A stretch of DNA of 64,000 nt from an uncultured bacterium (GTDB lineage: Bacteria > Macinerneyibacteriota > Macinerneyibacteria > Macinerneyibacteriales > CAYRFE01). This document shows, in pieces, positions 2,595 to 26,358 of the stretch (position 1 is the stretch's first letter; every line of letters begins with the position of its first letter). Both the position numbers and the translations under genes were made by a program. The notes below the pieces were generated by a model. The model did no database searches. It was not told the DNA's origin and saw nothing but the letters and a program-made list of their open reading frames with translations. The stretch lies in contig CAYRFE010000008.1 of assembly GCA_964423645.1 (NCBI GenBank), positions 37,333 through 101,332 of the forward strand, written 5' to 3'.

Positions 2595-3206
2595 TTAATC
2601 TATATCATATTCTTCATTGATCACATACTGAATTACATCCTTCACGTCCTCATACGAATACCCGCGAGAAAGACAGAACCGCATCAATTTTTCCGATGCA
2701 TTGGGTTTATCCTTCACCGTTTTCCACTTTTTACGCGCTAAAGTTTTCAGCATCTCCGTATCATCCGCACCGACGGTCTCGTCGATGATATCTCGCGGTA
2801 TACCTTTTTGTTGTAATTTTACGCGCAACAGACGCGCTCCGCACGAAGGATGCCCTGCAATAAAATCAAGCGCATATTGGTGATCATTAAGAAATTTATA
2901 GGCACAAAGACGCGTGATCTCTTCCTCAGCGGCTTTTTCAGAATACCCGAGCCCGAGAATATATTTTTTTGCATCAGCAACGGTTTTACGGTACCGTGAG
3001 AGATACCGAACCATCCGCGCGTGGAGTTTTTCGGTCACCTCACACGCACGGATCGCATCGCAATCTTCCTGTGTCAGTTCTTTATCGACGTATAATCGAA
3101 ACAGCGCGACGGTGTTCTGATCAAGTCCTTCAAAAAAGTCGCCGTCAATAAAACAATTATACCTCGTCGTATGTTTCTTCTGCGGCTCCAGACGGGTTAC
3201 TTTCAT
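2595..3206 (-). CDS. recX: Regulatory protein RecX
   Basis: Directly downstream of recA; RecX helical repeats ([13 protein letters not shown]-like [21 protein letters not shown]). Confidence 0.9.
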
Positions 3207-4203
3207 CGATTTCGTTCCTATTCATCCAATCACGGACTTTTAACTCGATCTCTTCACGCATTTTCGGGTTATCTTTCAGATATTGAATAATGACCGGCTT
3301 CCCTTGCCCCAAACGCATCGTGTTGTAAGAATACCACGAACCGCTTTTTTCAAGTATTTCCGCCTGTGTGGCAAGATCAACGATCTCGTTCACACGAGAA
3401 ATACCTTCACCATAAATAATATCCACCACAACAGCGCGGAAGGGTGGCGCAAGTTTATTTTTCACAACTTTGATCTTCGTCTCGTTACCGATACTGTCGG
3501 CACCGGTTTTCAGCTGATTACCGCGACGAATATCCATACGCAGCGATGCATAAAACTTCAATGCGTTACCGCCGGTAGTCGTTTCGGGGTTACCGAACAT
3601 GACACCGATCTTCATGCGGATCTGATTGAGGAAAATGAGCGCGGTGTTGGTCTTGCTCAATACGCCGGTGAGCTTGCGTAATGCTTGGCTCATCAAACGC
3701 GCCTGCAGTCCCATATGACTGTCGCCCATTTCGCCTTCGATCTCGGCACGCGGTGTCAGCGCCGCGACAGAGTCAACGACAATAACATCGATCGCCGCAC
3801 TTCGTACGAGTGTCTCGACGATATCAAGTGCCTGTTCGCCATTATCCGGTTGTGAAACCAGCAAATTGTCGATATCGACCCCGAGTTTTTTGGCGTAGAT
3901 CGGATCTAACGCATGTTCTGCATCAATAAAAGCGGCGACGCCGCCAAGTTTCTGAGCCTCTGCAATAATATGCAATGCCAACGTTGTTTTACCCGAAGAT
4001 TCCGGCCCGTAAATTTCGGTGACTCTTCCGCGAGGAATACCGTTGATACCGGTCGCATAATCAACTTTTAAAGAACCGGTCGGAATAACCCCTACGTCGA
4101 GATGAAAATCTCCGCCGAGTTTCATGATCGCACCTTTACCGTAATCCTTTTCTATTTGCTGCATTGCTTTTTGAAGCATTTTCTCTTTCATCTCGTCTGC
4201 CAT
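3157..4203 (-). CDS. recA: Recombinase RecA
   Basis: GPESSGKTT Walker [28 protein letters not shown] motifs. Confidence 0.99.
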
Positions 4204-5349: not shown

Positions 5350-6162
5350 ATGAGTATGCCTAAATCCCTTCGTACACAATTATACCGTATTATTTTTGAA
5401 TCAGACACGAAGGCCGGAAGGACATTTGATTTAGCATTGATCGTATGCATTTCTCTCAGTGTTTTAACCGTAATACTTGAAAGTATCCCTTCTTTTTCAA
5501 CACAGTTTCAAACAGAATTTTTATACGCAGAATGGTTCTGGGTCACGTTGTTCGGTATTGAATATATGCTCAGGATATACTCGGCAAAAAGCCCTCGTAC
5601 ATATATTTTCAGTTTTTATGGTCTTATCGATTTACTTGCCATACTTCCGTCCATTGCCGGCATATTCTTCGTCGGTATTCACATGTTTCTAGTTCTACGC
5701 GTTCTTCGTCTTTTTCGAATACTTCGTATTTTTAAACTTGGGAAATTTTTGTATCAAACGCGAATCATCGTTGAATCGCTTCGTGCAAGCAAAGAAAAAA
5801 TAGGCGTTTTTTTATTTGCAGTAATTCTATTGGTGCTTTGCATGGGCACAGTTATGTACCAGATCGAAGGCGCTATCAACGAAGGCTTCAACAGTATCCC
5901 CAAAAGTATTTATTGGTGTATCGTCACGTTGACAACGGTTGGCTATGGCGATATAGCTCCGATCACGACGCTCGGGCGTTTTTTAGCAAGTGCATTGATG
6001 ATCACCGGTTATGCGATCATCGCAGTTCCTACCGGGATTGTATCGGTAGAAATGGCAAAACAAGCGCAGAGCAACACAACATCCGTTATATGCTCGAAAT
6101 GCAAAAAAGCGAACCACGAACAAGGCGCAGTTTACTGCAACACCTGTGGTAAAAAACTCTAA
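5350..6162 (+). CDS. Voltage-gated potassium channel-like ion transporter with C-terminal zinc ribbon
   Basis: S4 segment LRVLRLFRILRIFKL, selectivity filter TVGYGD, C-terminal CxxC...CxxC. Confidence 0.95.
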   Translation: MSMPKSLRTQLYRIIFESDTKAGRTFDLALIVCISLSVLTVILESIPSFSTQFQTEFLYAEWFWVTLFGIEYMLRIYSAKSPRTYIFSFYGLIDLLAILPSIAGIFFVGIHMFLVLRVLRLFRILRIFKLGKFLYQTRIIVESLRASKEKIGVFLFAVILLVLCMGTVMYQIEGAINEGFNSIPKSIYWCIVTLTTVGYGDIAPITTLGRFLASALMITGYAIIAVPTGIVSVEMAKQAQSNTTSVICSKCKKANHEQGAVYCNTCGKKL

Positions 6163-6166
6163 CAAT

Positions 6167-6192
6167 GAAAAAGGGCGCTTTCGCGCCCTTAA
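6167..6192. terminator. Bidirectional intrinsic terminator between convergent genes
   Basis: AAAAAGGGCGC-TTTC-GCGCCCTT hairpin. Confidence 0.7.
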
Positions 6193-6215
6193 AGAATCTT
6201 ATTAAACTAATTCAA

Positions 6216-6830
6216 TTAAAACATGAAGCCGACGGTCGCATAAAGTGTACGAAGCTGAACTGCATCACCTTCATTATCTTTCACAATGTCAGTCAGACCG
6301 TGATTGTAACGAGCATCAAATACAAGTTTGCTAACCTTAACTTGAACACCCATAATAGCACCCATTTCAGTTGAACTTGTGAAATCTTTCATATCCATAG
6401 ATTCAACTTCGTCGCCATCAACTTCTACTATAGCTTCAGCTGTCACAAGGAAACCCATACTTAGTCCGCCATATACCTTCATCATCGGTAAAAGGCTTAA
6501 TTTTGCCATTACCGGAACTTCGATATAATCCGCTTTCATAATATAGTCAACGTCACCCTCTTCATAGCTCCATGTGTATTTTTCGCCTTTTTGGGTATAC
6601 AGTACTTCCGCACCTAAAGAAAGCGGGCCAAGAGGAAGTTCCATCATGATACCACCGGTGAGGCCTAAACGAAACGGGTTACTTTCATCAACCCACGGCG
6701 GTTGAGTTTCTTCGCCATACACAATATTACCCATGGTCAATCCAGCCTTGATACCAAACTCAGGACCGATAGCGTTCACGGAAAACACAGCAACTAAAGC
6801 TACCAACAACACAACTAAAACTTTTTTCAT
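6216..6830 (-). CDS. Outer-membrane beta-barrel protein (PorT/OMP_b-brl_2-like), array copy 1
   Basis: Signal peptide, FGIKAG, YTQKG, LDYIEVP-type, DARYNxGLTDI motifs, terminal Phe. Confidence 0.85.
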   Translation of the reverse strand: MKKVLVVLLVALVAVFSVNAIGPEFGIKAGLTMGNIVYGEETQPPWVDESNPFRLGLTGGIMMELPLGPLSLGAEVLYTQKGEKYTWSYEEGDVDYIMKADYIEVPVMAKLSLLPMMKVYGGLSMGFLVTAEAIVEVDGDEVESMDMKDFTSSTEMGAIMGVQVKVSKLVFDARYNHGLTDIVKDNEGDAVQLRTLYATVGFMF

Positions 6831-6890
6831 ACAGTCACCTCCGTTTTTCATACATAAATATATACCCACATCGCAATATTTTCAAGGTAC

Positions 6891-6918
6891 AAAAAAAGGG
6901 GCGATCTCTCGCCCCTTT
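6891..6918 (-). terminator. Intrinsic terminator of porin copy 2 (repeated at ~7625-7652 for copy 3)
   Basis: AAAGGGGCGA-TCTC-TCGCCCCTTT with U-tract on the minus strand. Confidence 0.8.
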
Positions 6919-6940
6919 ACTTAAGTTTTTACAGAGTCAA

Positions 6941-7564
6941 TTAAAACATGAAGCCGACGGTAGCATAAAGAGTGCTTAGTTTTACTGCATCGCCTTCATT
7001 ATCTTTCATGATGTCAGTCAAACCCATGTTGTAGCGAGCATCAAATACGAGTTTGCTGATCTTTACTTGTGCTCCAAATATTGCACCCATTTCTGTTGAA
7101 TTCATGAAATCTTTCATGTCGGCAGATGCTACTTCTGTATCATTGATCTCAGAAACCATTTCAGCAGAAACTAAGAATCCAAAACTTACGCCACCATAAA
7201 ACTTTACCAATGGCAAAAGACTCAATTTAGCCATAACAGGAACTTCGATGTAATCGAGTTTCGCAGTTACTGATACAGGAACAGCTGCGAGATAATTATT
7301 CGCAAATGTATCGAACTTCTCACCTTTTTGAGTATAAAGAAGTTCAGCACCCAAAGACAACGGACCCATAGGCATTTCCATCATAATACCACCGGTTAAT
7401 CCTGCACGAAACATATCCGTGTCAAAATCTTGCGGTGCGTTATCATCACCATACACAATATTACCCATGGTCAATCCAGCCTTGATACCAAACTCAGGAC
7501 CGATAGCGTTCACGGAAAACACAGCAACTAAAGCCACCAACAACACAACCAACATTTTTTTCAT
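6941..7564 (-). CDS. Outer-membrane beta-barrel protein, array copy 2
   Basis: Paralog of copy 1 with the same conserved motifs and different loops. Confidence 0.85.
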   Translation of the reverse strand: MKKMLVVLLVALVAVFSVNAIGPEFGIKAGLTMGNIVYGDDNAPQDFDTDMFRAGLTGGIMMEMPMGPLSLGAELLYTQKGEKFDTFANNYLAAVPVSVTAKLDYIEVPVMAKLSLLPLVKFYGGVSFGFLVSAEMVSEINDTEVASADMKDFMNSTEMGAIFGAQVKISKLVFDARYNMGLTDIMKDNEGDAVKLSTLYATVGFMF

Positions 7565-7674
7565 ACAGTCACCTCCGTTTTTCATACATAAATATATACC
7601 CATATCGCAATATTTTCAAGGTACAAAAAAAGGGGCGATCTCTCGCCCCTTTGCGTAAGTATTTAGAGAGTCAA

Positions 7675-8283
7675 TTAAAACATGAAGCCGACGGTAGCAT
7701 ATAAAGTGCGCAAATTAACTGCATCGCCTTCATTATCTTTCATGATATCGGTAAGACCATGATTATAGCGCGCATCGAGTACGAGTTTGCTGATCTTTAC
7801 CTGCACACCCATGATAGCGCCCATTTCTGTTGTATTTATGAAATCTTTCAAGTCCATTGAGTCTACTTCTTCACCATCGATTTCAACAATTTCTTCAGCA
7901 GTTGTTAAAAAACCAAAACTTACTCCGCCGTATACTTTTACTATAGGAAGAAGATTCAATTTTGCCATTACAGGAACTTCGATATAATCGAGTTTGAGGT
8001 TTATCAATAAATCGCCCTCTTCTTCAAAAGTGTATTTCTCGCCCTTTTGAGTATACAACACTTCGGCGCCAAGTGAAATCGGACCCATAGGCATTTCCAT
8101 CATGATACCACCGGTCAAACCGAATTTCAATGGGTTGTCGAGACCTTCGAAATCACCATTCTCTTCACCCCATACTACATTACCCAATACTAATCCGCCC
8201 TTGATACCAAACTCAGGACCCATAGCATTCACAGAAAACACAGCAACTAAAGCCACCAACAACACAACCAACATTTTTTTCAT
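7675..8283 (-). CDS. Outer-membrane beta-barrel protein, array copy 3
   Basis: Paralog of copies 1 and 2. Confidence 0.85.
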   Translation of the reverse strand: MKKMLVVLLVALVAVFSVNAMGPEFGIKGGLVLGNVVWGEENGDFEGLDNPLKFGLTGGIMMEMPMGPISLGAEVLYTQKGEKYTFEEEGDLLINLKLDYIEVPVMAKLNLLPIVKVYGGVSFGFLTTAEEIVEIDGEEVDSMDLKDFINTTEMGAIMGVQVKISKLVLDARYNHGLTDIMKDNEGDAVNLRTLYATVGFMF

Positions 8284-8360
8284 ACGGTCACCTCCGTTTT
8301 TCATACACAAATATACACCCGTACGACCTATTTTTCAAGGCAAAAACAAAATTGATACAT

Positions 8361-8386
8361 AAAAAAAGCCGCCCGAAGGCGGCTTC
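8361..8386 (-). terminator. Intrinsic terminator downstream of the 497-aa OMP
   Basis: AAGCCGCC-CGAA-GGCGGCTT with U-tract on the minus strand. Confidence 0.8.
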
Positions 8387-8407
8387 CGAAAAAAAGATTC
8401 TATACAA

Positions 8408-9901
8408 TTAGAAAGTAAATGAAAGACCACCGGTGAAACCGACACCTTGAGAATTCAAATCTACTTCGTCATTCCAGTCACCTTCATCACCATTTTCAGT
8501 ATACTTTGTTGGATTCGCATACATATCGACCATTAAATTACCAAATACTGCAATTTCAGGAGTAAGAAGTACATCAAGTCCTGCTCTTCCGGTAAAACCG
8601 ATCGCATTTGCTTTCAATTCAGAGTTAGCGTCATCACCTTTGACTGTAACCATACTATACCCGCCTGCAACGCCAAGGTTAAGCGCAAAACGGTTAAAAT
8701 ACACTCTATATCCCACACCAGCGTTAATAATAACCTGAGAAGCGGTTACTCCCTCAATTCCTTCTTCAAAACTCGGCATCGTATATCTTCCGCCGATTTC
8801 AAAATATAATTCTGATACATTGACAACCGGGCCAAGATCGTACGCCATGGTAACATGAATAGAAGGATGAATCCCTTTTATTGGTTCTTCATTGCCCCAT
8901 GCATATTTCAACGGACTCATACCGAATGCAGCACGGAACTCAAGACCGAGTTTACCGTCTTCTTTCGCCTGATCGCCTTCTTCGGCACTTCCGATAAGGA
9001 TCTGCGCTTCAGATTTGGTCTCATCAATCTTACGAACCTTACCGAATGATTTCATTATCAATTTGCCGTCTGCGGTATACGTATATGTTTTGTAGCGGTG
9101 ATCCATTTTAATGCCGCTGTCTTTACCAAAATCAAAACCAAAACGCCCGCCGCCGATCATGGTAACAACTGCACTGATCGTAAATTCAGGTGTATTACGA
9201 AGATCTTTTTTTATTACTTCAAAAAGACCGGCAACCGAATTGCGGAAATTCGTCTGTTTTTCTTTTTCTTCAGTCGACAGATTTTTCAGATCGCTGTTGT
9301 CAACACTGAAGGTACTTAAACCGGACATTAACGCACCAAGCACACTGGTCTTGTTATTTGCAGTCAGTGTGTGAATTTTTTCTTTTGTTTCAACATTGTA
9401 AATATCAAAATGCATTGCCATAGTGTAGGTATACTCGGTATACACTTCTTCTTGACCAAGCAAATTCTTTTTCTTTTTTTCTTTGGTAACCACGCTGATG
9501 GTGTCAATATAAGGAACGGCAGCATAAGAATGATTAAGAGTCTTAATCAAATCATCTGCAGTCACCATTGCTTCTTTAAACTTCCCGTCTGCTTCCATAC
9601 GCTGTGCGGCGATATCACGCAAATTTGCTTTGATAAACGCTTCCGCATTATCAAGGAAGCTTTGGAGAGACCCTTTGTTCACATCAAAAAAATCCACGCG
9701 TTTAAAATCAGCAACAAACATCTTATACATCTGTTTGTCAACGAATACTTCACGATCTCTGTTCATCTCACCTCTTGCATCGGGACCGTACTGAACAGGG
9801 AAAATAAACAATGATTTACGCTCATACTTCGTGAGCTCTTGAGCAAATACACTACCCAAAGCGACAGCCAATACCAAAACCAACAACACAACCTTTTTCA
9901 T
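8408..9901 (-). CDS. Exported two-domain protein: periplasmic alpha/beta N-domain plus probable C-terminal beta-barrel
   Basis: Signal peptide ending VFA-Q; alternating amphipathic strands in the last ~190 aa; ends GLSFTF. Confidence 0.6.
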   Translation of the reverse strand: MKKVVLLVLVLAVALGSVFAQELTKYERKSLFIFPVQYGPDARGEMNRDREVFVDKQMYKMFVADFKRVDFFDVNKGSLQSFLDNAEAFIKANLRDIAAQRMEADGKFKEAMVTADDLIKTLNHSYAAVPYIDTISVVTKEKKKKNLLGQEEVYTEYTYTMAMHFDIYNVETKEKIHTLTANNKTSVLGALMSGLSTFSVDNSDLKNLSTEEKEKQTNFRNSVAGLFEVIKKDLRNTPEFTISAVVTMIGGGRFGFDFGKDSGIKMDHRYKTYTYTADGKLIMKSFGKVRKIDETKSEAQILIGSAEEGDQAKEDGKLGLEFRAAFGMSPLKYAWGNEEPIKGIHPSIHVTMAYDLGPVVNVSELYFEIGGRYTMPSFEEGIEGVTASQVIINAGVGYRVYFNRFALNLGVAGGYSMVTVKGDDANSELKANAIGFTGRAGLDVLLTPEIAVFGNLMVDMYANPTKYTENGDEGDWNDEVDLNSQGVGFTGGLSFTF

Positions 9902-13880: not shown

Positions 13881-16800
13881 TTATCGTTCAAATGAAAAAC
13901 GTTTCATCAGCGTTACAAATAATGCCGGTAACACAACAAGTGTCAATGCGGTTGATGTCATCAAACCGCCGATCAAAGTAATAGCAAGGGGTTGTGACAA
14001 TTCACTGCCTTTTCCGATACCTAATGCAAGCGGAAATAACCCGAGTATGGTCGTAAGTGATGTCATAAGAATCGGTCTGAAACGCATTGTGCATCCTTTT
14101 TTCACTGCCTCAATCAGTGGCATTCCTTCTCGCATCAATGTATTGATAGTATCAATTTCCAGAATACTATCATTCACGACAATACCCGTTGCAACAACAA
14201 TTCCCATTAAACTCATGATATTAAATGATGTATGTGTCAATAACATAAGCGTTAACGATCCGATCAACGCCATTGGGACCGCAAGCATAATAATAACAGG
14301 CTGCAAAAAAGACTCAAACTGCATCCCGATCAGCATATACACCAATAAAAGAGCAAGACCGAACGCAAACCACAGCCCCGAAAAAGATTCTTTCATGTTC
14401 TCGATCTTCCCGCCGATTTTCAACTTGATCGGTTTGTCCCCGTTTAGGGTCTTAAAGGTATCATTGATCATGATCACCGCTTTTTCCAAACTTTTTCCCT
14501 TTATATTACAGAGTAATGACACTTTTCGACGTTGATCTTCACGTTTTAATTCATTCGGAACTTTTATTGAACGCAATTCAACAATATCTCCTACTTTATA
14601 TTCGGTTTTCCCGACAACGATCATACGCTCCAAGAACTCTTGTTTGCTTGGCGTGTTCTCATCATTTTTAAGCCATATGTCTATCTCTTTTGAGCCATCA
14701 TAAATAGTAGTTGTTTTCACCCCGACGGTCACTTTTTTCAATTGCTCAACAACTTCATACAACGGCACTGTGGATGATGCAATAAAATAATCTTTAAAGC
14801 GTAATTCAAGAATCTCACGCTCAAGCTCCAGATCTTTCTCAATGGCCGTGATCCACGAAAAATCCTTTTTTAATGCTTGTCGCATCGTATCAGCCAATAC
14901 ATTTAATTGCTCAATATCATCGCCTTCAAGCATCAGATCGAGATCATATTCACCAAAATCAAAAAACTGGTTGTACACACTGCCGGCCGAATAAAATGTA
15001 TACTCTATACCATATGAGGCAAGTAACGTATCGGAGATATGCTTTTTCAGCGGTTCAACATCATGAATCGATTGTGTCGCGATAAGGAAATATCCGGTAT
15101 TCACCCCTGCGATAGAATTTGAATACGACTTTCCTACATTAGCGATATGATACCGTATCACGTCTTTTTTTTCTTCAAGAATATTTTCAATGAGCTTTAC
15201 GTATTTCATGTTCGCATCAATCGTTGCACCGGTCGGAAGTGAATACTCAAGAAAAAACTTATCCTCCTTTACCGGCGGCACAAACTCACGTCGAATGGTC
15301 ATGCCCATAGATATGGTTATCAAAAATACAATTGCTGTTATCATGATAATTTTCTTTTTATTCTCTAAAACATTCACAAGTTGTTTTTGGTACTTCGATA
15401 ATACAAATAACAACATTTCATCAAACCAGGAAAAAATCTTTTTGGCTTTTTGTATAAACCATGCATTAAATCGTTCCATTTTTAATACGTACAACAACAT
15501 AGGCACAAACGTCAACGCGATGATAAGTGATGCAAGTAACGCCATGGTAATGATCAGTGCTTGTTCTTTAAACAATACTGCGACAACACCTTTAAGGTAC
15601 AAAACCGGTAAAAACACCACGATCGTTGTCAGTGTTCCCACGAGAATTGACGGTGCCATTTCCGTCGCACCCCTGATAATGCTTTCTTTTACCGTTAATC
15701 CCTCTTCGCGATAACGGTCTATATTCTCCATGACAACTACCGAGTTATCGGTCAACAAACCTATTCCAATCGCTAACCCGCCGAGAGATAAAATATTAAA
15801 ACTGATCCCAAAAAAATACATGCCGACAAATGTGGTAATAATAGATAACGGCATCGCAAAACCGATAATGAGCGGAGTGCGAAAATCATGTAGAAATATG
15901 AATAAAACAAAGAATGAAAGAATTCCTCCCCATACGACAGACCACGCAATATTTGCGATCGCCTGCAATATCGTATCGGAATCATCATACAATATACTGA
16001 GTTCCACCTTGTCCTTCGTATTTGATTCTTTTTTGAATTCCTGAATTAGTTTTCGCACTTCTCGACACACATTAACCGTATTCGCAGAAGATGATTTTAT
16101 AACAAATAAACCGACTCCCCTATCGCCGTTATAACGTGTGATTTCATCATTTTTCTTGACTCCACGTTCAATAACTGCAACATCTTTCAACTTAACGGTG
16201 GTCGAAATGCTCAGATTCCCGATCTCTTCAACCGAAAAACGATTTTTCTCTAATGACAATGAATATGAAAAATTTTCATCGCCGATCTCACCTGCGGATG
16301 CCGCAATATTATTCTGTTGCAACGCTCGGCTGATATCGTTAAAGCTAAGCCCGTATGATATCATATCTCTATTCTTTATCAAAACTCGTATCTCTTCTGT
16401 ATCAGCACCGACAACTTCACAAACCGCAACACCTTCAAGTCGCTCGATACGGTATTTGAGATAGTCTGATGCAAATCTGCTTATTTCAAGAAAATCATTG
16501 CCCTGTTTCGGTTCAACCATGACCTGCATTACAGGGGCTTGTGCAGGATCAAAATAGAGAATATTGGGTTTTTCCGCATCTCCTATATCGTCTTTTACCA
16601 TGTCAAGCTTTTCACGCGCCTTGAGCATGGTGTACTCCATATTGACTCCCCAATAAAATTCTACCGTTACAAGAGACTTACCGTCGGTTGATACCGATGT
16701 CACACGCTTCACATCAGGCAATGTGCTTAATTGACTTTCAATTTTTTGCGTGATGGTCTGATCCACTTCTTCAGGTGGCATATCAGGTGCTTTTGTCTCA

Positions 16801-16940
16801 ACAACAATCTTGGGTATATCGAGCGAAGGAAGTAATTCTACTTTCAGCATTTTCAATGAGATAGCTCCCAACAACACAATGCCGGCATAGATCATAAATG
16901 TTGTGACAGGGCGAGTAACCGAAAAGCGAGGCAAACTCAT
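13881..16940 (-). CDS. RND efflux permease (AcrB/MdtC-like), subunit 2
   Basis: FSVTRPVTT N-terminus, GLLTDNSVVVMEN TM4, RFRPILMTSLT; 1019 aa. Confidence 0.95.
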   Translation of the reverse strand: MSLPRFSVTRPVTTFMIYAGIVLLGAISLKMLKVELLPSLDIPKIVVETKAPDMPPEEVDQTITQKIESQLSTLPDVKRVTSVSTDGKSLVTVEFYWGVNMEYTMLKAREKLDMVKDDIGDAEKPNILYFDPAQAPVMQVMVEPKQGNDFLEISRFASDYLKYRIERLEGVAVCEVVGADTEEIRVLIKNRDMISYGLSFNDISRALQQNNIAASAGEIGDENFSYSLSLEKNRFSVEEIGNLSISTTVKLKDVAVIERGVKKNDEITRYNGDRGVGLFVIKSSSANTVNVCREVRKLIQEFKKESNTKDKVELSILYDDSDTILQAIANIAWSVVWGGILSFFVLFIFLHDFRTPLIIGFAMPLSIITTFVGMYFFGISFNILSLGGLAIGIGLLTDNSVVVMENIDRYREEGLTVKESIIRGATEMAPSILVGTLTTIVVFLPVLYLKGVVAVLFKEQALIITMALLASLIIALTFVPMLLYVLKMERFNAWFIQKAKKIFSWFDEMLLFVLSKYQKQLVNVLENKKKIIMITAIVFLITISMGMTIRREFVPPVKEDKFFLEYSLPTGATIDANMKYVKLIENILEEKKDVIRYHIANVGKSYSNSIAGVNTGYFLIATQSIHDVEPLKKHISDTLLASYGIEYTFYSAGSVYNQFFDFGEYDLDLMLEGDDIEQLNVLADTMRQALKKDFSWITAIEKDLELEREILELRFKDYFIASSTVPLYEVVEQLKKVTVGVKTTTIYDGSKEIDIWLKNDENTPSKQEFLERMIVVGKTEYKVGDIVELRSIKVPNELKREDQRRKVSLLCNIKGKSLEKAVIMINDTFKTLNGDKPIKLKIGGKIENMKESFSGLWFAFGLALLLVYMLIGMQFESFLQPVIIMLAVPMALIGSLTLMLLTHTSFNIMSLMGIVVATGIVVNDSILEIDTINTLMREGMPLIEAVKKGCTMRFRPILMTSLTTILGLFPLALGIGKGSELSQPLAITLIGGLMTSTALTLVVLPALFVTLMKRFSFER

Positions 16941-18124
16941 TTCTTTTCTCCCTCCTGTACACGGACATCCTTATTGATTGTGATCGGTGATTTATGCGCA
17001 AGGGTATAATGTCCGTCTATGATTATTTCTTTATCTTTTTCAAGGTCTTCTGCGATACTCACATATTCAAAATTTTCATATCCAACCTTCACATACTGCC
17101 ACCAGGCAAGATATTGCTCGCCGACTTTACGTGTCTCAAATACTAACGGTTTGCCCTCACGTATCAAAAGTGCTGACTTCGGCACAAGTATTTGGTTTTT
17201 TATGACATGGGTTTGCAGTAATACATCGCAAAATAAACCCGGTTTTAATTCTCCGTTTGAATTATTGAGTTCAACGACCGCATACGTGCTATTGTCATCA
17301 TATATAAGCGGGTTGATCGAATAAATTCGCCCCGGATACTTCTGTTTATTTACAACAGGAAACACCAATGCGCCGTTCCCCTCTTTGATCTGTGCGATAT
17401 CTTTTACCAACAGCTTTGCGCGTACTCGTAACATTGATACATCCGCAAGCGTAAGAAGCGGACTACCAGGTTTCACATATTGCCCTTCAGATGCTTCAAT
17501 TTTTCCGACAACTCCGGTAAAAGGAGCATACATACGGCATTTTTTATAATTCTCAAGCGCCTGTTTCAATCGCAACTCCTGATCGCCCAATCTATATTTT
17601 ATACGCTCTTGTGAAACATTTCCTTTTTTCATTTCCTCAAGAACACTTTTCTGAATCGCTGCGATTTCGGCATCATCAGTGTATACCATATTGGCTTCAT
17701 TATTCAGTTCCGGCAACGGGATATCGCCTTCTTTTATGGCAAGATACTCGATATAGGCTTTCTTATAATCAAGCAATGCCTTTTCATAGGCGATACCATA
17801 TTCGGGATTGTCAATGGTAAATAGCAATGTTCCTTTTTTAACAGTCTGTCCCTCGCGGACCTTAAGGGAAATATTACCGCTGGTTTCAGCCGTGTAATCA
17901 TTAACCTTTATAGGTTCCAATTTGCCTGACGATGATACATACATCGGCAAATCTCCGATTTTTGAGTACCCGACTGATACAGGAATAGGTGTTGATAATG
18001 TATGACTTGAATCAACCGCATCCTGCTTTTCCTTTTTTACAAAGATTTTACTGCGAAACACATAGCCAGCTCCTGCAAGCACAATAATAACAGCTGCGAT
18101 AATAATGATTCTGAGCTTATTCAT
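16937..18124 (-). CDS. RND periplasmic adaptor (membrane fusion protein)
   Basis: N-terminal TM anchor, lipoyl half-motifs VREGQTVKKG and APFTGVV, ELKPGLFC. Confidence 0.93.
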   Translation of the reverse strand: MNKLRIIIIAAVIIVLAGAGYVFRSKIFVKKEKQDAVDSSHTLSTPIPVSVGYSKIGDLPMYVSSSGKLEPIKVNDYTAETSGNISLKVREGQTVKKGTLLFTIDNPEYGIAYEKALLDYKKAYIEYLAIKEGDIPLPELNNEANMVYTDDAEIAAIQKSVLEEMKKGNVSQERIKYRLGDQELRLKQALENYKKCRMYAPFTGVVGKIEASEGQYVKPGSPLLTLADVSMLRVRAKLLVKDIAQIKEGNGALVFPVVNKQKYPGRIYSINPLIYDDNSTYAVVELNNSNGELKPGLFCDVLLQTHVIKNQILVPKSALLIREGKPLVFETRKVGEQYLAWWQYVKVGYENFEYVSIAEDLEKDKEIIIDGHYTLAHKSPITINKDVRVQEGEKK

Positions 18125-19484
18125 GATATTCCTCCGTAATGGTAAACGCGGTACCGGTGTAACGACTTGCCTCAATTGCCCGTGAATTATACGTGAGAAT
18201 GGCCGATAAATACTCTCGTTCCAGTGCAATATACTCATCTTCAATAGAAATCATTTCTTGCAATGTCAGCGCACCCATCGCAAAAAAATTAGCGCTTGCA
18301 CGATAATTCTCGCGCATCGTGGGGAGAACATCTTCATACACTTTCACTTTATCATGATTGTACGCGACGTCCTTTAATAATTCACTAAATTCACGATCGA
18401 CAGATTCAATTTTTTCATCAAACTCGTTTTTCTTGAGCAAATAATCAATTTTTTCCATTTTAATACTTGAATACTTCATCAAATTAGAGAAGGGTATAGT
18501 CAATTTGAGACCAACCGAATAATTAGAATATTCAAACCCGTCACTTCCGTAAGCACCGGAATCATCATACCCGATATGTAAAAATCCGGATAATTTCATA
18601 CTGTTTTGATCCAGTGCAATACGATGTGCCCGGTATGCGTCATCAAGCGAGCGATGTATATCACGGCGTTTTTCATCGGGAATCGTACCGATCATATCTT
18701 TATTGATGTTCTTTATGGAAAAACTCACTTCATTGAGGGTTCCGTTAATAAATTGTTCGGCGATCCTGCGTGCTTCGTCTCTGTTTTTTTCGGCACTGCT
18801 CATATCGAGTTCTGCAAATTTAAACCGTTTTTTTATACGACTGTAATCCACGATCGTCATCAACCCCAAGGCATATTTGTTTCGAGCGCCGTCATGGATA
18901 TCGCGGTACCGTTCGAGTTGATTCTTACTCAATTGATATTCTTTTTCCGCAAGACATACTTGGATATAGATCGTGTAACATTTTTGCAGCAACTCCAGTT
19001 CATATTCTTTTGTTTTGTAATGACGCGATTCGCGTGCATTTCTCCAGAGACGATAATTATGATACGGCGTGTTGATACCCCATACTGTTTGCTCAACAGA
19101 CAGCGTCAATGCACTACGTTCCTCGGTCTCGTTATCGGTAAAATCATAATGATCATATTGGTATGAAGCGGCAATATTCGTATTACTGGGAAGGCTCTGT
19201 GTCAACGATAATCTCCCCTGATAATCATAATATTCACTCGTTGTACCGGTTAAAGAAAAACTTGTTTTATCGCTTACATACTGCGGTTGCAAGGTTGCAT
19301 CGACGAGTGGAACTATAGCGGATAAACGACGCATTTCATTCCAATAGTCGTATTTTTTTAAAAGTTCATTATCACGATACGTATCACTTTTTTTAAACGC
19401 TTGTTTTGCGAATTCCTCAAAGGTCAACGCCCTAACCGGTGTGAGAAGAAGCGCGACTGCAATTAAAAACAACACTATCCTCAT
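18117..19484 (-). CDS. TolC-family outer-membrane efflux protein
   Basis: Signal peptide, long helical repeats with beta-strand pairs, position between RND permease and adaptor. Confidence 0.8.
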   Translation of the reverse strand: MRIVLFLIAVALLLTPVRALTFEEFAKQAFKKSDTYRDNELLKKYDYWNEMRRLSAIVPLVDATLQPQYVSDKTSFSLTGTTSEYYDYQGRLSLTQSLPSNTNIAASYQYDHYDFTDNETEERSALTLSVEQTVWGINTPYHNYRLWRNARESRHYKTKEYELELLQKCYTIYIQVCLAEKEYQLSKNQLERYRDIHDGARNKYALGLMTIVDYSRIKKRFKFAELDMSSAEKNRDEARRIAEQFINGTLNEVSFSIKNINKDMIGTIPDEKRRDIHRSLDDAYRAHRIALDQNSMKLSGFLHIGYDDSGAYGSDGFEYSNYSVGLKLTIPFSNLMKYSSIKMEKIDYLLKKNEFDEKIESVDREFSELLKDVAYNHDKVKVYEDVLPTMRENYRASANFFAMGALTLQEMISIEDEYIALEREYLSAILTYNSRAIEASRYTGTAFTITEEYHE

Positions 19485-19485
19485 A

Positions 19486-22400
19486 TTATTCCTCCCTATG
19501 CCGACGTATGCGTGCATATGTCATACTCGTTACTTTTTTCCCGAATAAATATATTTTTTTCCCAACACGGACAGGTCCTCCGCCACGAATAAAATGCCAT
19601 ACTCCGCTATCACGATATGCGGGCTCATCGACATCGCGTTTTGCAAAAAACAAATAGAACAACGGCATAAATGTCAATGTGAATAAGGTTGAGGTCGTTA
19701 ATCCGCCAACCGTTGCATAGCTTAGATGTTTCCAAATATTTGTGTTTGCCGTTGCATCACTTTCATTTTTGATAAGAATGATCGGCAACAATCCTACAAT
19801 AGTGGTCAGCGATGTAATAAGAATTGGGCGTACACGATCCGATGCGCCGCTGATGATCGCGCGAACGCGTGAGTAATCACTGTCTGTACGTAAATGATTG
19901 ATATGATTGATCATGATGATCGCATTATTCACAACAATGCCCGCAAGTAACATTGAGCCCATTATCGCATGTACCGTGAATGTTAATTCAAAAATCTTAT
20001 AAAACCAAACCACCCCGACGAATGCAAGCGGTAAACTGATAAGAATGATCAACGGCTCAAGAAGATTTTCATAAAGTGCAGCAAGAATCATATAGATAAT
20101 AATGATTGCCATTATAAGCAACCCGATAATGCGGGTATAATCAATCTCTTCTCCAAATCCGAAAAACCGTTCCTGTTCAACAACTGAAAAACCGGGAGGA
20201 AACGCAATTGATGAGTTCAGATTTTTTTCAAAATCTTGTTGACTTACTTGCTGCCCCGAATATTCATACGAGATCGGATAGCGATAATTTTGATCATCGC
20301 GTCGAATAACTCTGTTTGTTTCTTCAAAAAGAATATCGGCGATATCACCGAGTTTAATTCCGCTTCGAATATGTAACGTGCGTAGACGATATAAACTTAA
20401 CTTTTCCTCCAAACGAAGCGCGAAGGAAATATTGTCATTACCGTATTTTATTGAGTCTCGCTGGATATAATCACGCAATAACACACTGATCTTGCGAATG
20501 ACGGTAAAAACATCAAGATTATACACACGCAGTTTTTCAGAATCGAAACGTACAACCACTTTTTTGATCGCATCCGTATTATCTGCACCAAGCTTGACAT
20601 TACTGACTTCGCGGAATTGCTCAAACGCAGGTTTGAATTGATATTCGGCAAATTCTTTCAATTTTTCATAGTTGTATCCTTGCAGATATATGGTCGAGGC
20701 ATATCGCGTCCCTCCCATAAATCCACCGCCGAAGTCGGGACCAATACCCGAGACCCGCACGGAAACTTGGGATTTTCGTGCTCCATAAATTTTCAGTTTT
20801 TCACGCAATGAGTATGCTTCTGCGCTCCTCACAAACGGTTCTTTAAAATACACCAGAATACGCGCTGAATAAGAACTGATCGATGTGCGATAATAATCAA
20901 CCGTCTCGTTTCCGGCGATTAATCCTTCAAATAAAGTCACTTCATCTTTCAAGCGAAAATCGGGGACATTTGCTTCTGTATAAAAAAAGCAGGTGATCCA
21001 CGGATCATATTCCCCCCCGCCAAAGGTAAAACTCGAACGATCAACTTTGGTCACAAAAGTATAAATGCTGTGACCTACGATAAAAAGAATAAGGAACAGT
21101 ACAAAATAACGGAACCGAAATATAAAGCGAATATATTTTTCATACACCATTTTCAGCCTGCTTGTACGTTCACGTTTACGTTCTTCGATATGAAATCGTA
21201 AAAAGGCGATCGGAATCAAGGTAAATGAGACAAGGATAGACACAATCAATGACACACAGACTGTTTTTGCGAAAGGAATGTAATAGATCTTCAAATCATC
21301 CTGCAAAAAAACAAACGGTATTAACACACAGATTGTCGTGAGTGTGGACGCAAGGATCGGCATAAACATCTCGCGGTATGTCGTTATGATCGCGTTTTTT
21401 ATCGACATTCCTTTATAATAAAGTTTATGTATGCTTTCATATTCGACAACTGCATTATCAACCAACAATCCGAACGCAAGGGCAAGTCCGCTCATGGTGA
21501 ACATATTAAGAGATTCTTTCGAAAAAAATAAAAAATTAAGTGCAATAGATGCCGAAAGAAAAATCGACATCATGGTTATCAGTGAAGAGCGGATATTTCT
21601 CATGAATGCAAACAGCACTAAAAAGATCGCTGCTACTGCAACCGAGATTTGAACCGCAAGATGACGATAATCTTTTACAATATCCTTGCCCTCGTCATCA
21701 GCTACGGTATATCCGAATACCGACTGATTATCTAATATCTCCTGTAATTTTTCCTTAACGGCTTTTGATACACTGAGCGCATTTGCATTTCTGCTTTTCG
21801 CCAATACGACATATACTGCCGCGTGACCGTCAATTTTATGTATTCCGTCAACAGGGTCTTCATTGACAAAAGAAATATCCGCCACTTGTCCAAGCTGAAT
21901 TTTATTGCCGATATCCCAATTTTTGATTTGTGAAGGATCTACATCATTGACAAACGTCACATATCGTCTCATCCCTTGGTCTTCTAAATGACCGATGACT
22001 TGTTTTTTATTAAGATTATTGAGACGAAGGATCAAATCGTTAAACGAAACATTATACTGCTCTATGGCTTCGGCTCGATAGACAATACGTAACTCCTTGG
22101 TAACACCGCCTTGAATAACGACATCTGCGACACCGGGAATGCCCGACAATTCGCGTTTTAAGGTCTGCTCGGCAAATCTGGTGAGATAATATCGGTCAAA
22201 TGCTCCCCCGCCTTCCTGTGCAGCACTAAAAAGATAAAAACTAAAAAACGTTGCATCGCCGATATCATAGGGAACATACGGTTCTACACGCGGAGGGGAC
22301 ATATCAGCCGGAAGCTTTGACTTGAGAGATGACACGCGTTCATTAACAAGAAATACGGTAAAATTGATATCTGCATCACGCTCTAACTCTATTTCGATAT

Positions 22401-22668
22401 ACGCACTGCCCTGTCGAGTCGTTGATGTAATTTTCTTAACACCTTTCACGGTATAGATATCTTCTTCAATGATCGACGTAATAAAACGAACAATATTTTC
22501 AGGCGATTGGTTGCCCCAAAACGCTCTTACCGTGATCTTCGGATAACTTACGTCGGGTAATTTTTCTTTTGGGATTTGATTAAATGCATACGTTCCCAAA
22601 ATCAACATGAGAACGAAGATCATCACAAACGACTTGGGACGTTTTATTGCAAGTTCAGATAAATTCAT
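19486..22668 (-). CDS. RND efflux permease (AcrB/MdtB-like), subunit 1
   Basis: LAIKRP N-terminus, GLLVDNAVV, GIVVNNAII, RVRPILITSLTT; 1060 aa. Confidence 0.95.
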   Translation of the reverse strand: MNLSELAIKRPKSFVMIFVLMLILGTYAFNQIPKEKLPDVSYPKITVRAFWGNQSPENIVRFITSIIEEDIYTVKGVKKITSTTRQGSAYIEIELERDADINFTVFLVNERVSSLKSKLPADMSPPRVEPYVPYDIGDATFFSFYLFSAAQEGGGAFDRYYLTRFAEQTLKRELSGIPGVADVVIQGGVTKELRIVYRAEAIEQYNVSFNDLILRLNNLNKKQVIGHLEDQGMRRYVTFVNDVDPSQIKNWDIGNKIQLGQVADISFVNEDPVDGIHKIDGHAAVYVVLAKSRNANALSVSKAVKEKLQEILDNQSVFGYTVADDEGKDIVKDYRHLAVQISVAVAAIFLVLFAFMRNIRSSLITMMSIFLSASIALNFLFFSKESLNMFTMSGLALAFGLLVDNAVVEYESIHKLYYKGMSIKNAIITTYREMFMPILASTLTTICVLIPFVFLQDDLKIYYIPFAKTVCVSLIVSILVSFTLIPIAFLRFHIEERKRERTSRLKMVYEKYIRFIFRFRYFVLFLILFIVGHSIYTFVTKVDRSSFTFGGGEYDPWITCFFYTEANVPDFRLKDEVTLFEGLIAGNETVDYYRTSISSYSARILVYFKEPFVRSAEAYSLREKLKIYGARKSQVSVRVSGIGPDFGGGFMGGTRYASTIYLQGYNYEKLKEFAEYQFKPAFEQFREVSNVKLGADNTDAIKKVVVRFDSEKLRVYNLDVFTVIRKISVLLRDYIQRDSIKYGNDNISFALRLEEKLSLYRLRTLHIRSGIKLGDIADILFEETNRVIRRDDQNYRYPISYEYSGQQVSQQDFEKNLNSSIAFPPGFSVVEQERFFGFGEEIDYTRIIGLLIMAIIIIYMILAALYENLLEPLIILISLPLAFVGVVWFYKIFELTFTVHAIMGSMLLAGIVVNNAIIMINHINHLRTDSDYSRVRAIISGASDRVRPILITSLTTIVGLLPIILIKNESDATANTNIWKHLSYATVGGLTTSTLFTLTFMPLFYLFFAKRDVDEPAYRDSGVWHFIRGGGPVRVGKKIYLFGKKVTSMTYARIRRHREE

Positions 22669-25551: not shown

Positions 25552-26358
25552 ATGAAGAAAATGGTGGCAATACTTATTGTGTGCACAGCGTTTTTAGGTA
25601 GTGTTTTTGCAGACGTTACTTTCGGCGTGAAGGCAGGCGGGGGCTTGACAAATCCTTCGCAGTTCATTTTTGATGAATGGGGTATCCCGGATGAATTTCA
25701 AAAAAATACTTTTAATTTCATGGGAGGTATTTTTGTCGATTATCCGCTCAACAATGTTTTCAGCATCGAATCAGGAATCTATTATGCACCCCGCTCGTTG
25801 AAAATTGAATATCTTTATGAAAATTATCATGATTACCAAAAGCAAAATATATCATGGCGCTCTACCTGTGATATAGAGATGAAAATGTCATATCTCGAAA
25901 TACCTATGCTCTTAAAAATACACACCGACGTTATCACACCATATGCGGGAATAAGCGCAGCGATACTCTTGGGAAATGACGGTATTGATTATATAACCAC
26001 CGGGACCGGGTACGATCAGGACGGTACTATAAACTATGACAATACAAACGATATTTCTGCATCTAACATAAAAGATTGCCTCAATAGCTTGGTATTTAAT
26101 GCACAAATGGGCTTGCAATATAATCTTACCGACAGTATTGTAATTGACATACGTTATGTACTGGGATTATCAGCTATCGAAAAATATTACGAAATAAGTG
26201 AAGCTGAGAATAACCGCTTGCAAGGATTAACAGAAAAAGAACGTAATACATGGTATAATGAACACCCATTCCGCTATGATGGCACGGTCAATACCTATGA
26301 AGACACAGAATCAATTTCTTTATCTTCGCTATACTTAATGGTAGGTTATCAGTTTTAA
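25552..26358 (+). CDS. Outer-membrane beta-barrel protein (same PorT-like family as the array, longer loops)
   Basis: FGVKAGGG, YLEIPMLLK, DIRYVLGLS, YLMVGYQF. Confidence 0.8.
   Translation: MKKMVAILIVCTAFLGSVFADVTFGVKAGGGLTNPSQFIFDEWGIPDEFQKNTFNFMGGIFVDYPLNNVFSIESGIYYAPRSLKIEYLYENYHDYQKQNISWRSTCDIEMKMSYLEIPMLLKIHTDVITPYAGISAAILLGNDGIDYITTGTGYDQDGTINYDNTNDISASNIKDCLNSLVFNAQMGLQYNLTDSIVIDIRYVLGLSAIEKYYEISEAENNRLQGLTEKERNTWYNEHPFRYDGTVNTYEDTESISLSSLYLMVGYQF

Follow-up and report, generated by a model that had tools for sequence, protein, structure and literature searches.

Among the described systems, the closest in organization to the locus reported here is the p28/omp-1 family of Ehrlichia, with 22 tandem paralogous genes for outer-membrane barrels in E. 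chaffeensis (PMC7971322), individual sigma-70 promoters (PMC5066175) and a variability that sits in hypervariable surface regions (PMC6867850). This variation is thought to work by differential expression and not by cassette recombination. Recombination between paralogs has been described for other families: PMC6053082, citing Santoyo & Romero (2005), states that short-term concerted evolution by gene conversion often involves outer-membrane protein genes, and gene conversion between outer-membrane paralogs is covered in a review of the outer-membrane proteins of Helicobacter pylori (PMC3960876). In the bab/hop genes of H. pylori and the opa genes of Neisseria, the 5' and 3' ends are homogenized or exchanged while the middles differ. 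In Anaplasma msp2/p44, Borrelia vlsE, Treponema tprK and Neisseria pilE/pilS, a variable center lies between conserved flanks, and an expression site is accompanied by promoterless donors. Here, we analyzed a tandem array of three small outer-membrane barrel genes (c1, c2 and c3) at positions 6216-8283 of a 64,000-nucleotide stretch of DNA from an uncultured bacterium, hereafter the window (contig CAYRFE010000008.1 of assembly GCA_964423645.1, positions 37,333-101,332). A sequence-only reading of the window had proposed that gene conversion or unequal crossover shuffles the surface loops of these proteins, in what it called a recombinase-free diversification array. Our analysis instead makes it probable that this is a lineage-specific tandem family of eight-stranded barrels, whose cores are inherited vertically and whose flanks are homogenized by ectopic gene conversion.

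With the Ehrlichia locus the array shares its tandem paralogs, a promoter for each gene (here by consensus matches) and variable surface loops. Ehrlichia is, however, an obligate intracellular pathogen, while the host of the present array is a free-living environmental bacterium. P28 proteins belong to a different Pfam family and are larger, and no homology of the array proteins to the P28/Msp4 family was found, as they match only PF13568 and PF13505 in Pfam. The likeness to p28/omp-1 should be considered an analogy rather than membership in that family.

The three array genes are minus-strand paralogs arranged head to tail, with starts taken at MKK. Copies are numbered by plus-strand coordinate, as in the earlier reading, and the order of transcription is c3, c2, c1. 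The first gene transcribed, c3 (7675-8283 including the stop, minus strand), encodes a 202-residue barrel precursor, the second, c2 (6941-7564, minus strand), a protein of 207 residues and the third, c1 (6216-6830, minus strand), one of 204 residues. Protein identity is 76% between c1 and c3, 73% between c1 and c2 and 71% between c2 and c3. The most divergent lineage is that of c2, which has a longer second loop and the residues FGAQ and YNMG, and which shares FGAQ and NMG with M_7, one of the copies in the eight-copy array of a relative described below. Each gene is preceded by a sigma-70-like promoter, TTGAAA-N17-TATATT, at 8310-8338 (c3), 7591-7619 (c2) and 6857-6885 (c1), all on the minus strand and identified by consensus match only. 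This promoter had been reported for copies 1 and 2, where it is indeed present, but it is not confined to them, as copy 3 has the same one. The promoter core is kept in 12 of 13 aligned upstream regions and, together with the core of the 5' untranslated region, is conserved over paralogs and species. A Shine-Dalgarno (SD) sequence, GGAGGTGA, lies ahead of the start codon in c1, c2 and c3. The terminators are GC-rich hairpins followed by a T-run, with folding z-scores of -3.4 to -4.2. The one after c3 (7629-7652, 10-bp stem, -19.0 kcal/mol, z -4.2) and the one after c2 (6895-6918, z -3.9) have the same sequence, and the one after c1 (6171-6190, z -3.4) is unlike the other two; all are on the minus strand, as is a further terminator at 8364-8387 that belongs to the upstream gene for a 497-residue protein. 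As it sits between that gene and c3, the latter terminator is expected to isolate c3 transcription. Judged by sequence criteria, each array copy is a complete expression unit with promoter, SD, Sec signal peptide, C-terminal Phe and terminator. The earlier description of three tandem paralogs, each with its own SD and terminator, is thus borne out by the open reading frames, motifs and hairpins.

All three copies match PF13568 (OMP_b-brl_2) with E-values of 3e-16 to 7e-20 and scores of 60.4, 72.3 and 64.5 bits, against a curated cut-off of 27, and c2 and c3 also match PF13505 (OMP_b-brl); for c3, the E-values are 1.6e-17 and 1.5e-12, respectively. For c1, AlphaFold2 was run with 14 family sequences, and the resulting model (predicted local distance difference test score, pLDDT, 82.7; predicted template-modeling score, pTM, 0.75) shows a signal helix followed by an eight-stranded antiparallel barrel with long protruding hairpins and two-residue turns, the predicted strands being 24-37, 53-67, 70-89, 92-114, 117-137, 140-166, 169-176 and 192-203. 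The best Foldseek matches of this model in the PDB were OmpA-TM, Ail, OmpX, NspA and OmpW (E ~1e-6), the first four with probability 1.0 and TMt 0.53-0.61. The array proteins share with these known eight-stranded barrels the predicted fold, the signal peptide and the C-terminal Phe, but only 12-16% sequence identity with the solved ones. Indeed, an N-terminus of the form MKK-hydrophobic-SVNA and a C-terminus ending in TVGFMF are present in all three copies, so that both a Sec signal peptide and a C-terminal aromatic residue (the beta-signal of the barrel assembly machinery, BAM) can be recognized by inspection, with no predictor involved. The proteins had been called porins. At 202-207 residues and eight predicted strands, they do not belong to the classical porin class (trimeric, 16-18 strands and ~300-400 residues), no porin family is found among their Pfam matches and the porin OmpF (4lsh) scores a TM of 0.13 with probability 0.25. 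They are predicted to be small barrels of the OmpA-TM/OmpX/Ail/NspA type with a mature chain of ~180 residues. This should be considered in annotation, where such genes are better described as OmpA/OmpX-like eight-stranded barrels, as "porin family protein" is a generic NCBI label put on matches of the PF13568/PF13505 type.

By the topology rules of outer-membrane barrels, the N-terminus and the two-residue turns 68-69, 115-116 and 167-168 of c1 would be periplasmic, and L1 (38-52), L2, L3 and L4 (177-191) would therefore be extracellular loops, where L2 and L3 are formed by the ends of the long hairpins beta3/beta4 and beta5/beta6. The conserved strands and divergent loops noted in the sequence-only reading are evident in the column entropies of the 14 sequences, which are 1.88 bit for L1, 1.44 bit for L2 and 1.41 bit for L3, as compared to 0-0.9 bit for the membrane strands and turns (range over loops, 1.4-1.9 bit). 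Thus, the paralogs differ mainly in L1-L3, segments that, as had been supposed, are predicted to be extracellular, while strands, periplasmic turns and L4 are conserved. L4 (HGLTDI.KDNEGDAV; c1 residues 177-191, nucleotides 6258-6302) is almost invariant over paralogs and species, with an entropy of 0.64 bit. Such conservation is unexpected for a predicted extracellular loop, and, like the tandem arrangement, sets the array apart from known eight-stranded barrels; the segment may be tucked into the barrel or serve as the binding site of a shared partner.

The two gene junctions of the array carry a direct repeat. Its copy at the c2/c1 junction (6715-6967, minus strand) spans the 3' end of c2, the terminator, the promoter, the SD and codons 1-39 of c1, and its copy at the c3/c2 junction (7449-7701, minus strand) spans the corresponding elements, from the 3' end of c3 to codon 39 of c2. 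The near-identical repeat reported earlier at an offset of 734 was measured here at 253 nucleotides with nine mismatches (96.4% identity) and a longest exact run of 86 nucleotides. Read on the coding strand, it contains the last 27 nucleotides of the upstream coding sequence and the first 116 nucleotides (39 codons) of the downstream one, the latter part encoding the signal peptide and strand beta1. Residues 5-39 are identical in c1 and c2, in agreement with the match that had been described for these two copies over the promoter and first ~39 residues. The repeat ends at codon 39, directly before L1, where homology collapses.

A three-way alignment of the gene units was then used for a maximum chi-squared (max-chi2) breakpoint test with 2000 permutations. 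The highest value, 63.7 at 6717/6714, which is codon 39 and the beginning of L1, was reached by none of the permutations (p<1/2000). On the 5' side of this breakpoint the informative sites favor c1=c2 in 52 cases, c1=c3 in 2 and c2=c3 in 6, while on the 3' side the counts are 49, 61 and 67, respectively, as in a star-like tree. The synonymous divergence (dS) of c1 and c2 is 0.14 within the tract, whereas beyond its limits every pair of paralogs is saturated at 1.0-1.6, and over the 230-nucleotide 5' unit c1 and c2 are 95% identical, with c3 at only ~75%. A recent ectopic gene-conversion tract links the c3/c2 and c2/c1 junctions, and the conversion postulated in the sequence-only reading is in this sense confirmed, as the tree topology changes along the gene. 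The same reading had also seen copy 1 as a mosaic that resembles copy 3 downstream of the tract. The sites on which this was based (EVLY, EKYT, KVYGG, IMGVQ, YNHG and LRTL) are present in both, but they represent the majority state in the 14 family members, and the 49/61/67 distribution shows no more affinity of c1 to c3 than does a star-like tree of paralogs. As for direction, the tract brings a beta1 strand (KAGLTMGNIVYG) of the c1/M_3 type, in place of which GNMVWG and GNVVWG are found in M_7 and M_8, respectively, the orthologs of c2; it is therefore most likely that the c1 side was the donor and c2 the recipient. At codons 4-5, c2 agrees with c3, pointing to more than one conversion patch.

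One should consider whether the identity of the two junctions could have arisen with no conversion at all, either as the scar of a recent tandem duplication by unequal crossover that gave rise to c2 or c1, or maintained by selection acting on promoter and signal peptide. Tandem arrays do grow by unequal crossover, and the promoter, SD and signal peptide are constrained elements that are kept in all paralogs. A recent duplication would, however, have left near-identical cores, whereas the cores of c1 and c2 differ by a dS of ~1.6 and each has its own ortholog elsewhere, the orthology of c2 with M_8 being unfavorable to it; it is excluded because the two cores diverged anciently. Selection, in turn, fails to account for near-identity at synonymous sites and in the spacer between stop codon and terminator, which is non-functional, nor does it explain why c3, with the same functional elements, is so much less similar over the 5' unit. 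We consider this explanation, in either form, very unlikely.

The possibility that the repeat or the mosaic was produced by strain mixing or mis-threading during metagenome assembly, which the sequence-only reading had itself raised, was also weighed. The window comes from an uncultured organism, the short-read Logan contigs (k=31) break at the repeat, and one contig of run X2 bears the letters of the other copy at five of the mismatch positions of the repeat; we treated the latter as possible bubble-popping and not as evidence of a variant. Nonetheless, the repeats differ at nine positions and share at most 86 exact bases, over which an assembly at k=141 (a value inferred from the contig names) would not mis-thread, and over 7.7 kb the sequence agrees to 99.96% with that of a second assembly, L001, which may, admittedly, stem from the same sample. 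In two aquatic metagenome runs from 2018, moreover, independent k=31 contigs starting in the c1 core and in the c2 core reach 30 nucleotides into the common sequence, and the depth of the common stretches is ~1.6-2.4 times that of their flanks. An assembly artifact is, accordingly, the least credible explanation, and we give it hardly any weight.

The close family is small. A search of 5.8 billion proteins found 14 members, and the close subfamily comprises three clusters at E<=1e-30 among 1.84 billion representatives. A scan of genome contigs yielded a single related genome, a binchicken metagenome-assembled genome (MAG), and a scan of metagenome contigs gave relatives of at most 38% identity in its own table, which show that arrays recur but do not serve as a strain comparison. 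For the comparison between species we used the window copies (W), the copy of S1 (locus L005) and those of M (loci L002, L003, L004, L006 and L010), the array of M having been reconstructed from the overlapping contigs L004, L006 and L010. S1 has a single copy between the gene of the 497-residue protein and a downstream ion-channel gene, while M has eight tandem copies together with two tandem copies of the large neighbor gene. Array size among close relatives thus amounts to one (L005), three (window) and eight (M), and the array is not fixed, in line with the comparison that the sequence-only reading had called for. At locus L008, the copy beside the channel gene, that is, in the last position, is of a different paralog type. 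More distant relatives of 31-43% identity, found in other metagenomes (L011-L017), also occur in arrays, the four longest loci holding 4-5 copies; tandem arrays of this size are seen in L011 (8001-11669), L012, L013 and L015, and in L011 a sixth, more distant barrel protein of 224 residues follows the array. At locus L009, from another metagenome, a 349-residue protein with transposase-type HTH domains (HTH_23/28/29/32; 1283-2332) lies directly upstream of a copy near-identical in protein to M_5; it is probably an insertion-sequence transposase, with queA ahead of it, and the array context there is rearranged.

Trees were calculated by neighbor joining for separate segments, using two segmentations. 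Over amino acid columns 40-125, from L1 through beta4, the window copies pair not with each other but with copies of other species, namely W_c1 with M_3, W_c3 with S1_a and W_c2 with M_8p, each with a bootstrap of 100 (96-100 over both segmentations). The core of W_c1 is 84% identical in amino acids to that of M_3 (P0001; M_8 is P0013). In the tree of the 5' segment, by contrast, the partner of W_c1 is W_c2 (bootstrap 100), and the copies of the window and of S1 cluster together (bootstrap 75). The same is reflected in the signal peptide, with ALV in the window and S1 where all copies of M read ALC, and at the C-terminus, which reads GFMF in the window and S1 and G[LI][ST]F in six of the seven complete M copies. 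In columns 126-182 and at the 3' end, the cross-species pairs of the core are no longer recovered, and sites at which W_c1 agrees with M_3 as against W_c3 shift from 56:11 in the core to 20:26 in columns 126-182 (Fisher p 1.3e-5). These trees indicate that the lineages of the L1-L2 cores are older than the separation of the species compared, and that the promoter, signal peptide and strand 1 undergo concerted evolution inside each genome, with the 3' part appearing as a weaker version of the same. The half of the gene 3' of column 126, L3 included, has lost its orthology signal.

Rates of substitution were compared between loops and strands, as the sequence-only reading had suggested. The loops are indeed the faster part, with a nonsynonymous divergence (dN) between paralogs of 0.40-0.67, as compared to 0.11-0.13 in strands (3-6 times). 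Diversifying selection, in contrast, is not apparent: dN/dS is below 1 throughout and reaches 0.07-0.20 in loops of the two ortholog pairs with finite dS. It should be noted that pairwise dN/dS with saturated dS indicates a value below 1 and does not speak to single positively selected sites. The proportion of nonsynonymous differences (pN) in the c1/M_3 core is 0.05, as opposed to 0.115 in the gene of the 497-residue protein for the same two species. The L1-L2 cores appear to be under purifying selection, and these figures indicate conserved, paralog-specific loop functions rather than ongoing shuffling or an arms race. Specific ligand or receptor roles of the individual loops would be consistent with this. 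In the same comparison, a transfer of the c1 core between species was considered, as the proportion of synonymous differences (pS) is 0.50 in the core and 0.63-0.65 in the neighbor gene; the difference is about two standard errors by a rough estimate, and such a transfer is not claimed.

Taken with the fold of the proteins, these results are those of an ordinary tandem outer-membrane protein family with homogenizing conversion, a familiar pattern and no new loop-shuffling device. In the mechanism that we favor, the L1-L2 core of each paralog would be inherited vertically and held by purifying selection, while the flanks (3' end, terminator, promoter, SD, signal peptide and strand 1) would be converted between loci by ordinary homologous recombination. 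Such RecA-dependent ectopic conversion, as the simplest mechanism, would start in the conserved 3' or 5' end and stop at the first codon of L1, beyond which homology is lost, with the 253-nucleotide tract representing the newest event. Over longer times, copies would be gained and lost in a birth-and-death process, presumably by unequal crossing-over at the same conserved flanks. A crossover between the two repeats would delete or duplicate one 734-bp unit, equivalent to the c2 core, which fits the copy-number differences among relatives. The gene recA itself (PF00154, E 8e-139) is found at 3157-4203 on the minus strand, 2 kb from the array; this proximity is probably coincidental, but it bears on the term recombinase-free used in the earlier reading.

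Several points weigh against this explanation and should be considered when referring to it. The comparison has no more than three to four related genomes to draw on, and the neighbor-joining trees are based on short segments. As dS is saturated outside the tract, L3 may have been exchanged between paralogs in the past, in the lineage of the window or in that of M. The order of paralogs is not collinear between species, since the c2 type precedes the c1 type here, while in M the c1 type is third and the c2 type eighth; this may be because of core swapping, or of duplication plus loss. In addition, the orientation of the loops is a prediction from topology rules and the modeled structure.

Some of these points are among the arguments for the array being a diversification device after all, in which conversion or unequal crossover would regularly shuffle loop segments into chimeric barrels, for example as phage receptors or for different substrates. 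A variable core set between conserved 5' and 3' flanks is indeed the architecture of a cassette exchange, one recent conversion is proven, the segment that has lost orthology from column 126 on is the one that holds L3, paralog order and array size vary among relatives, and direct repeats 734 nucleotides apart with 86 nucleotides of exact identity could be used by RecA. The only event that can be dated, however, halts before L1 and carries no loop, so that the proposed shuffling of loops by conversion is not what the tract displays. Furthermore, the L1-L2 segment is orthologous across species and at least as conserved as the neighbor gene, and dN/dS in the loops is below 1. The two assemblies are identical in the array, and the Logan contigs of four runs show no chimeric joints, although this is weak evidence, as contigs drop rare variants. 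We regard regular shuffling of loops as unlikely.

Comparison with established diversification systems leads in the same direction. Of the expression-site and silent-cassette type, the array has the variable center between conserved flanks, but its copies all have promoter, SD, start codon, signal peptide and terminator, all three are full-length and no silent, promoterless or truncated donor copies were found at the array. A conversion tract that carries a variable surface segment was likewise not seen, the detected one ending at codon 39. The array thus fails the defining features of such systems. In relation to bab/hop and opa, the homogenized ends and different middles are shared. Those paralogs are, however, dispersed and several carry phase-variable short repeats, while the array copies are adjacent and have none: no tandem short repeat was found within 6100-8400, and the longest homopolymer seen by eye is an A7 at the start codon. 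The host of the array, unlike the bearers of bab/hop and opa, is not known as host-associated, and the array cores are kept from one species to the next, with no hypervariability within a species at the present sampling. Enzyme-driven diversification, by a diversity-generating retroelement or an invertase shufflon, also has no counterpart in the scanned neighbor genes and inverted repeats. The only inverted repeat at the array is the terminator palindrome, and no reverse transcriptase, invertase or other site-specific recombinase was found among the neighbor genes scanned against Pfam, which comprised those for an SH3-domain protein, RecA, HlyIII, the ion channel, a metallo-beta-lactamase-fold protein, Gate and NMT1 and did not extend to every open reading frame of the window. 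The PADLOC defense models had no matches. The term recombinase-free diversification array finds no specific support in a locus of complete units with no silent cassettes, whose one detected event fits RecA-dependent recombination.

A related reading would be that of a genuine cassette system in a free-living bacterium of a candidate phylum, in which RecA-mediated exchange of flanks occasionally moves whole L1-L2 or L3 cores between positions and resizes the array, with the 497-residue protein as a functional partner. If true, it would explain both the range of one to eight copies and the non-collinear order of paralogs, and phages or predators would meet a changed set of surface structures. 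We hold this to be unlikely. Concerted flanks around vertically inherited cores remain the preferred explanation, and, as such, the locus offers a clean and well-delimited example of modular surface-protein evolution from a barely studied candidate phylum, in which concerted evolution affects the parts for regulation, export and assembly and the loop cores persist as old, conserved lineages. It also illustrates that a junction-spanning repeat in a tandem outer-membrane protein array should not be interpreted as a diversification device unless the tract is checked against orthologs.

The upstream neighbor of the array (8408-9901, minus strand) encodes the 497-residue protein, which is predicted to consist of a FlgT-like N-terminal part and a C-terminal eight-stranded OmpA-TM-like barrel. 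Its AlphaFold2 model has a pLDDT of 86.9, and Foldseek matched it to FlgT (3w1e, E 3e-10) and to OmpA-TM (1bxw, TMt 0.77). No Pfam or NCBIfam family scored above its curated cut-off for this protein, and hhalign found no homology to the array proteins (probability 4.6%), so that the likeness of its modeled barrel to theirs would be structural only. The gene adjoins the array in the window, S1, M and L011, even though the array proteins of L011 are only ~35% identical, and its family is restricted to Mcinerneyibacteriota-like MAGs. From this linkage and the recurrence of arrays in related lineages, the FlgT-like barrel fusion and the tandem small barrels seem to form a conserved envelope module of the lineage. 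In M, the homolog of this gene is tandemly duplicated (L003 1879-3378 and 3497-5002; also L002 4873-5172 as against 6491-6790). The first 300 codons of the two duplicates are identical (pS 0), while the last 200, which encode the barrel part, have a pS of ~0.5, and the duplicates would appear to have the same mosaic as the small genes, with a homogenized 5' part and a divergent remainder. When 8283-9901 of the window is compared with 3601-5340 of L005, pS falls along the gene of the 497-residue protein from 0.72 in the first 100 codons to 0.23 in the last 100, and it stays low, at 0.27, in the first 39 codons of c3. Such a drop suggests a segment imported by homologous recombination between lineages.

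A fourth family member lies outside the array at 25552-26358 on the plus strand and encodes 268 residues (PF13568, E 3.5e-14). It had been pointed out earlier and is real, yet distant, with ~26% identity to the array proteins (tblastn, E 5e-11 to 6e-13). An Rfam scan of the whole 64,000-nucleotide window gave no match. The closest named relative of SecA is a protein of 'Candidatus Mcinerneyibacteriota' with 67% identity, an assignment to phylum that should be taken as tentative, and the uncultured host comes from an aquatic or sediment setting. The organism of the window and its eight-copy relative seem to co-occur in the same aquatic sample: in contig 6 of run X1 (at 7532-7581) the flanks match the signal-peptide sequence of M at a depth of ~6, the depth of the window organism being ~20. 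Likewise, ERZ27262927 yields both L001 and L004. Further along the window, at 13881-22668 on the minus strand, lie the genes for two resistance-nodulation-division (RND) efflux permeases of 1019 and 1060 residues, a membrane-fusion protein and an OEP/TolC-like protein, which provide an ordinary envelope context.

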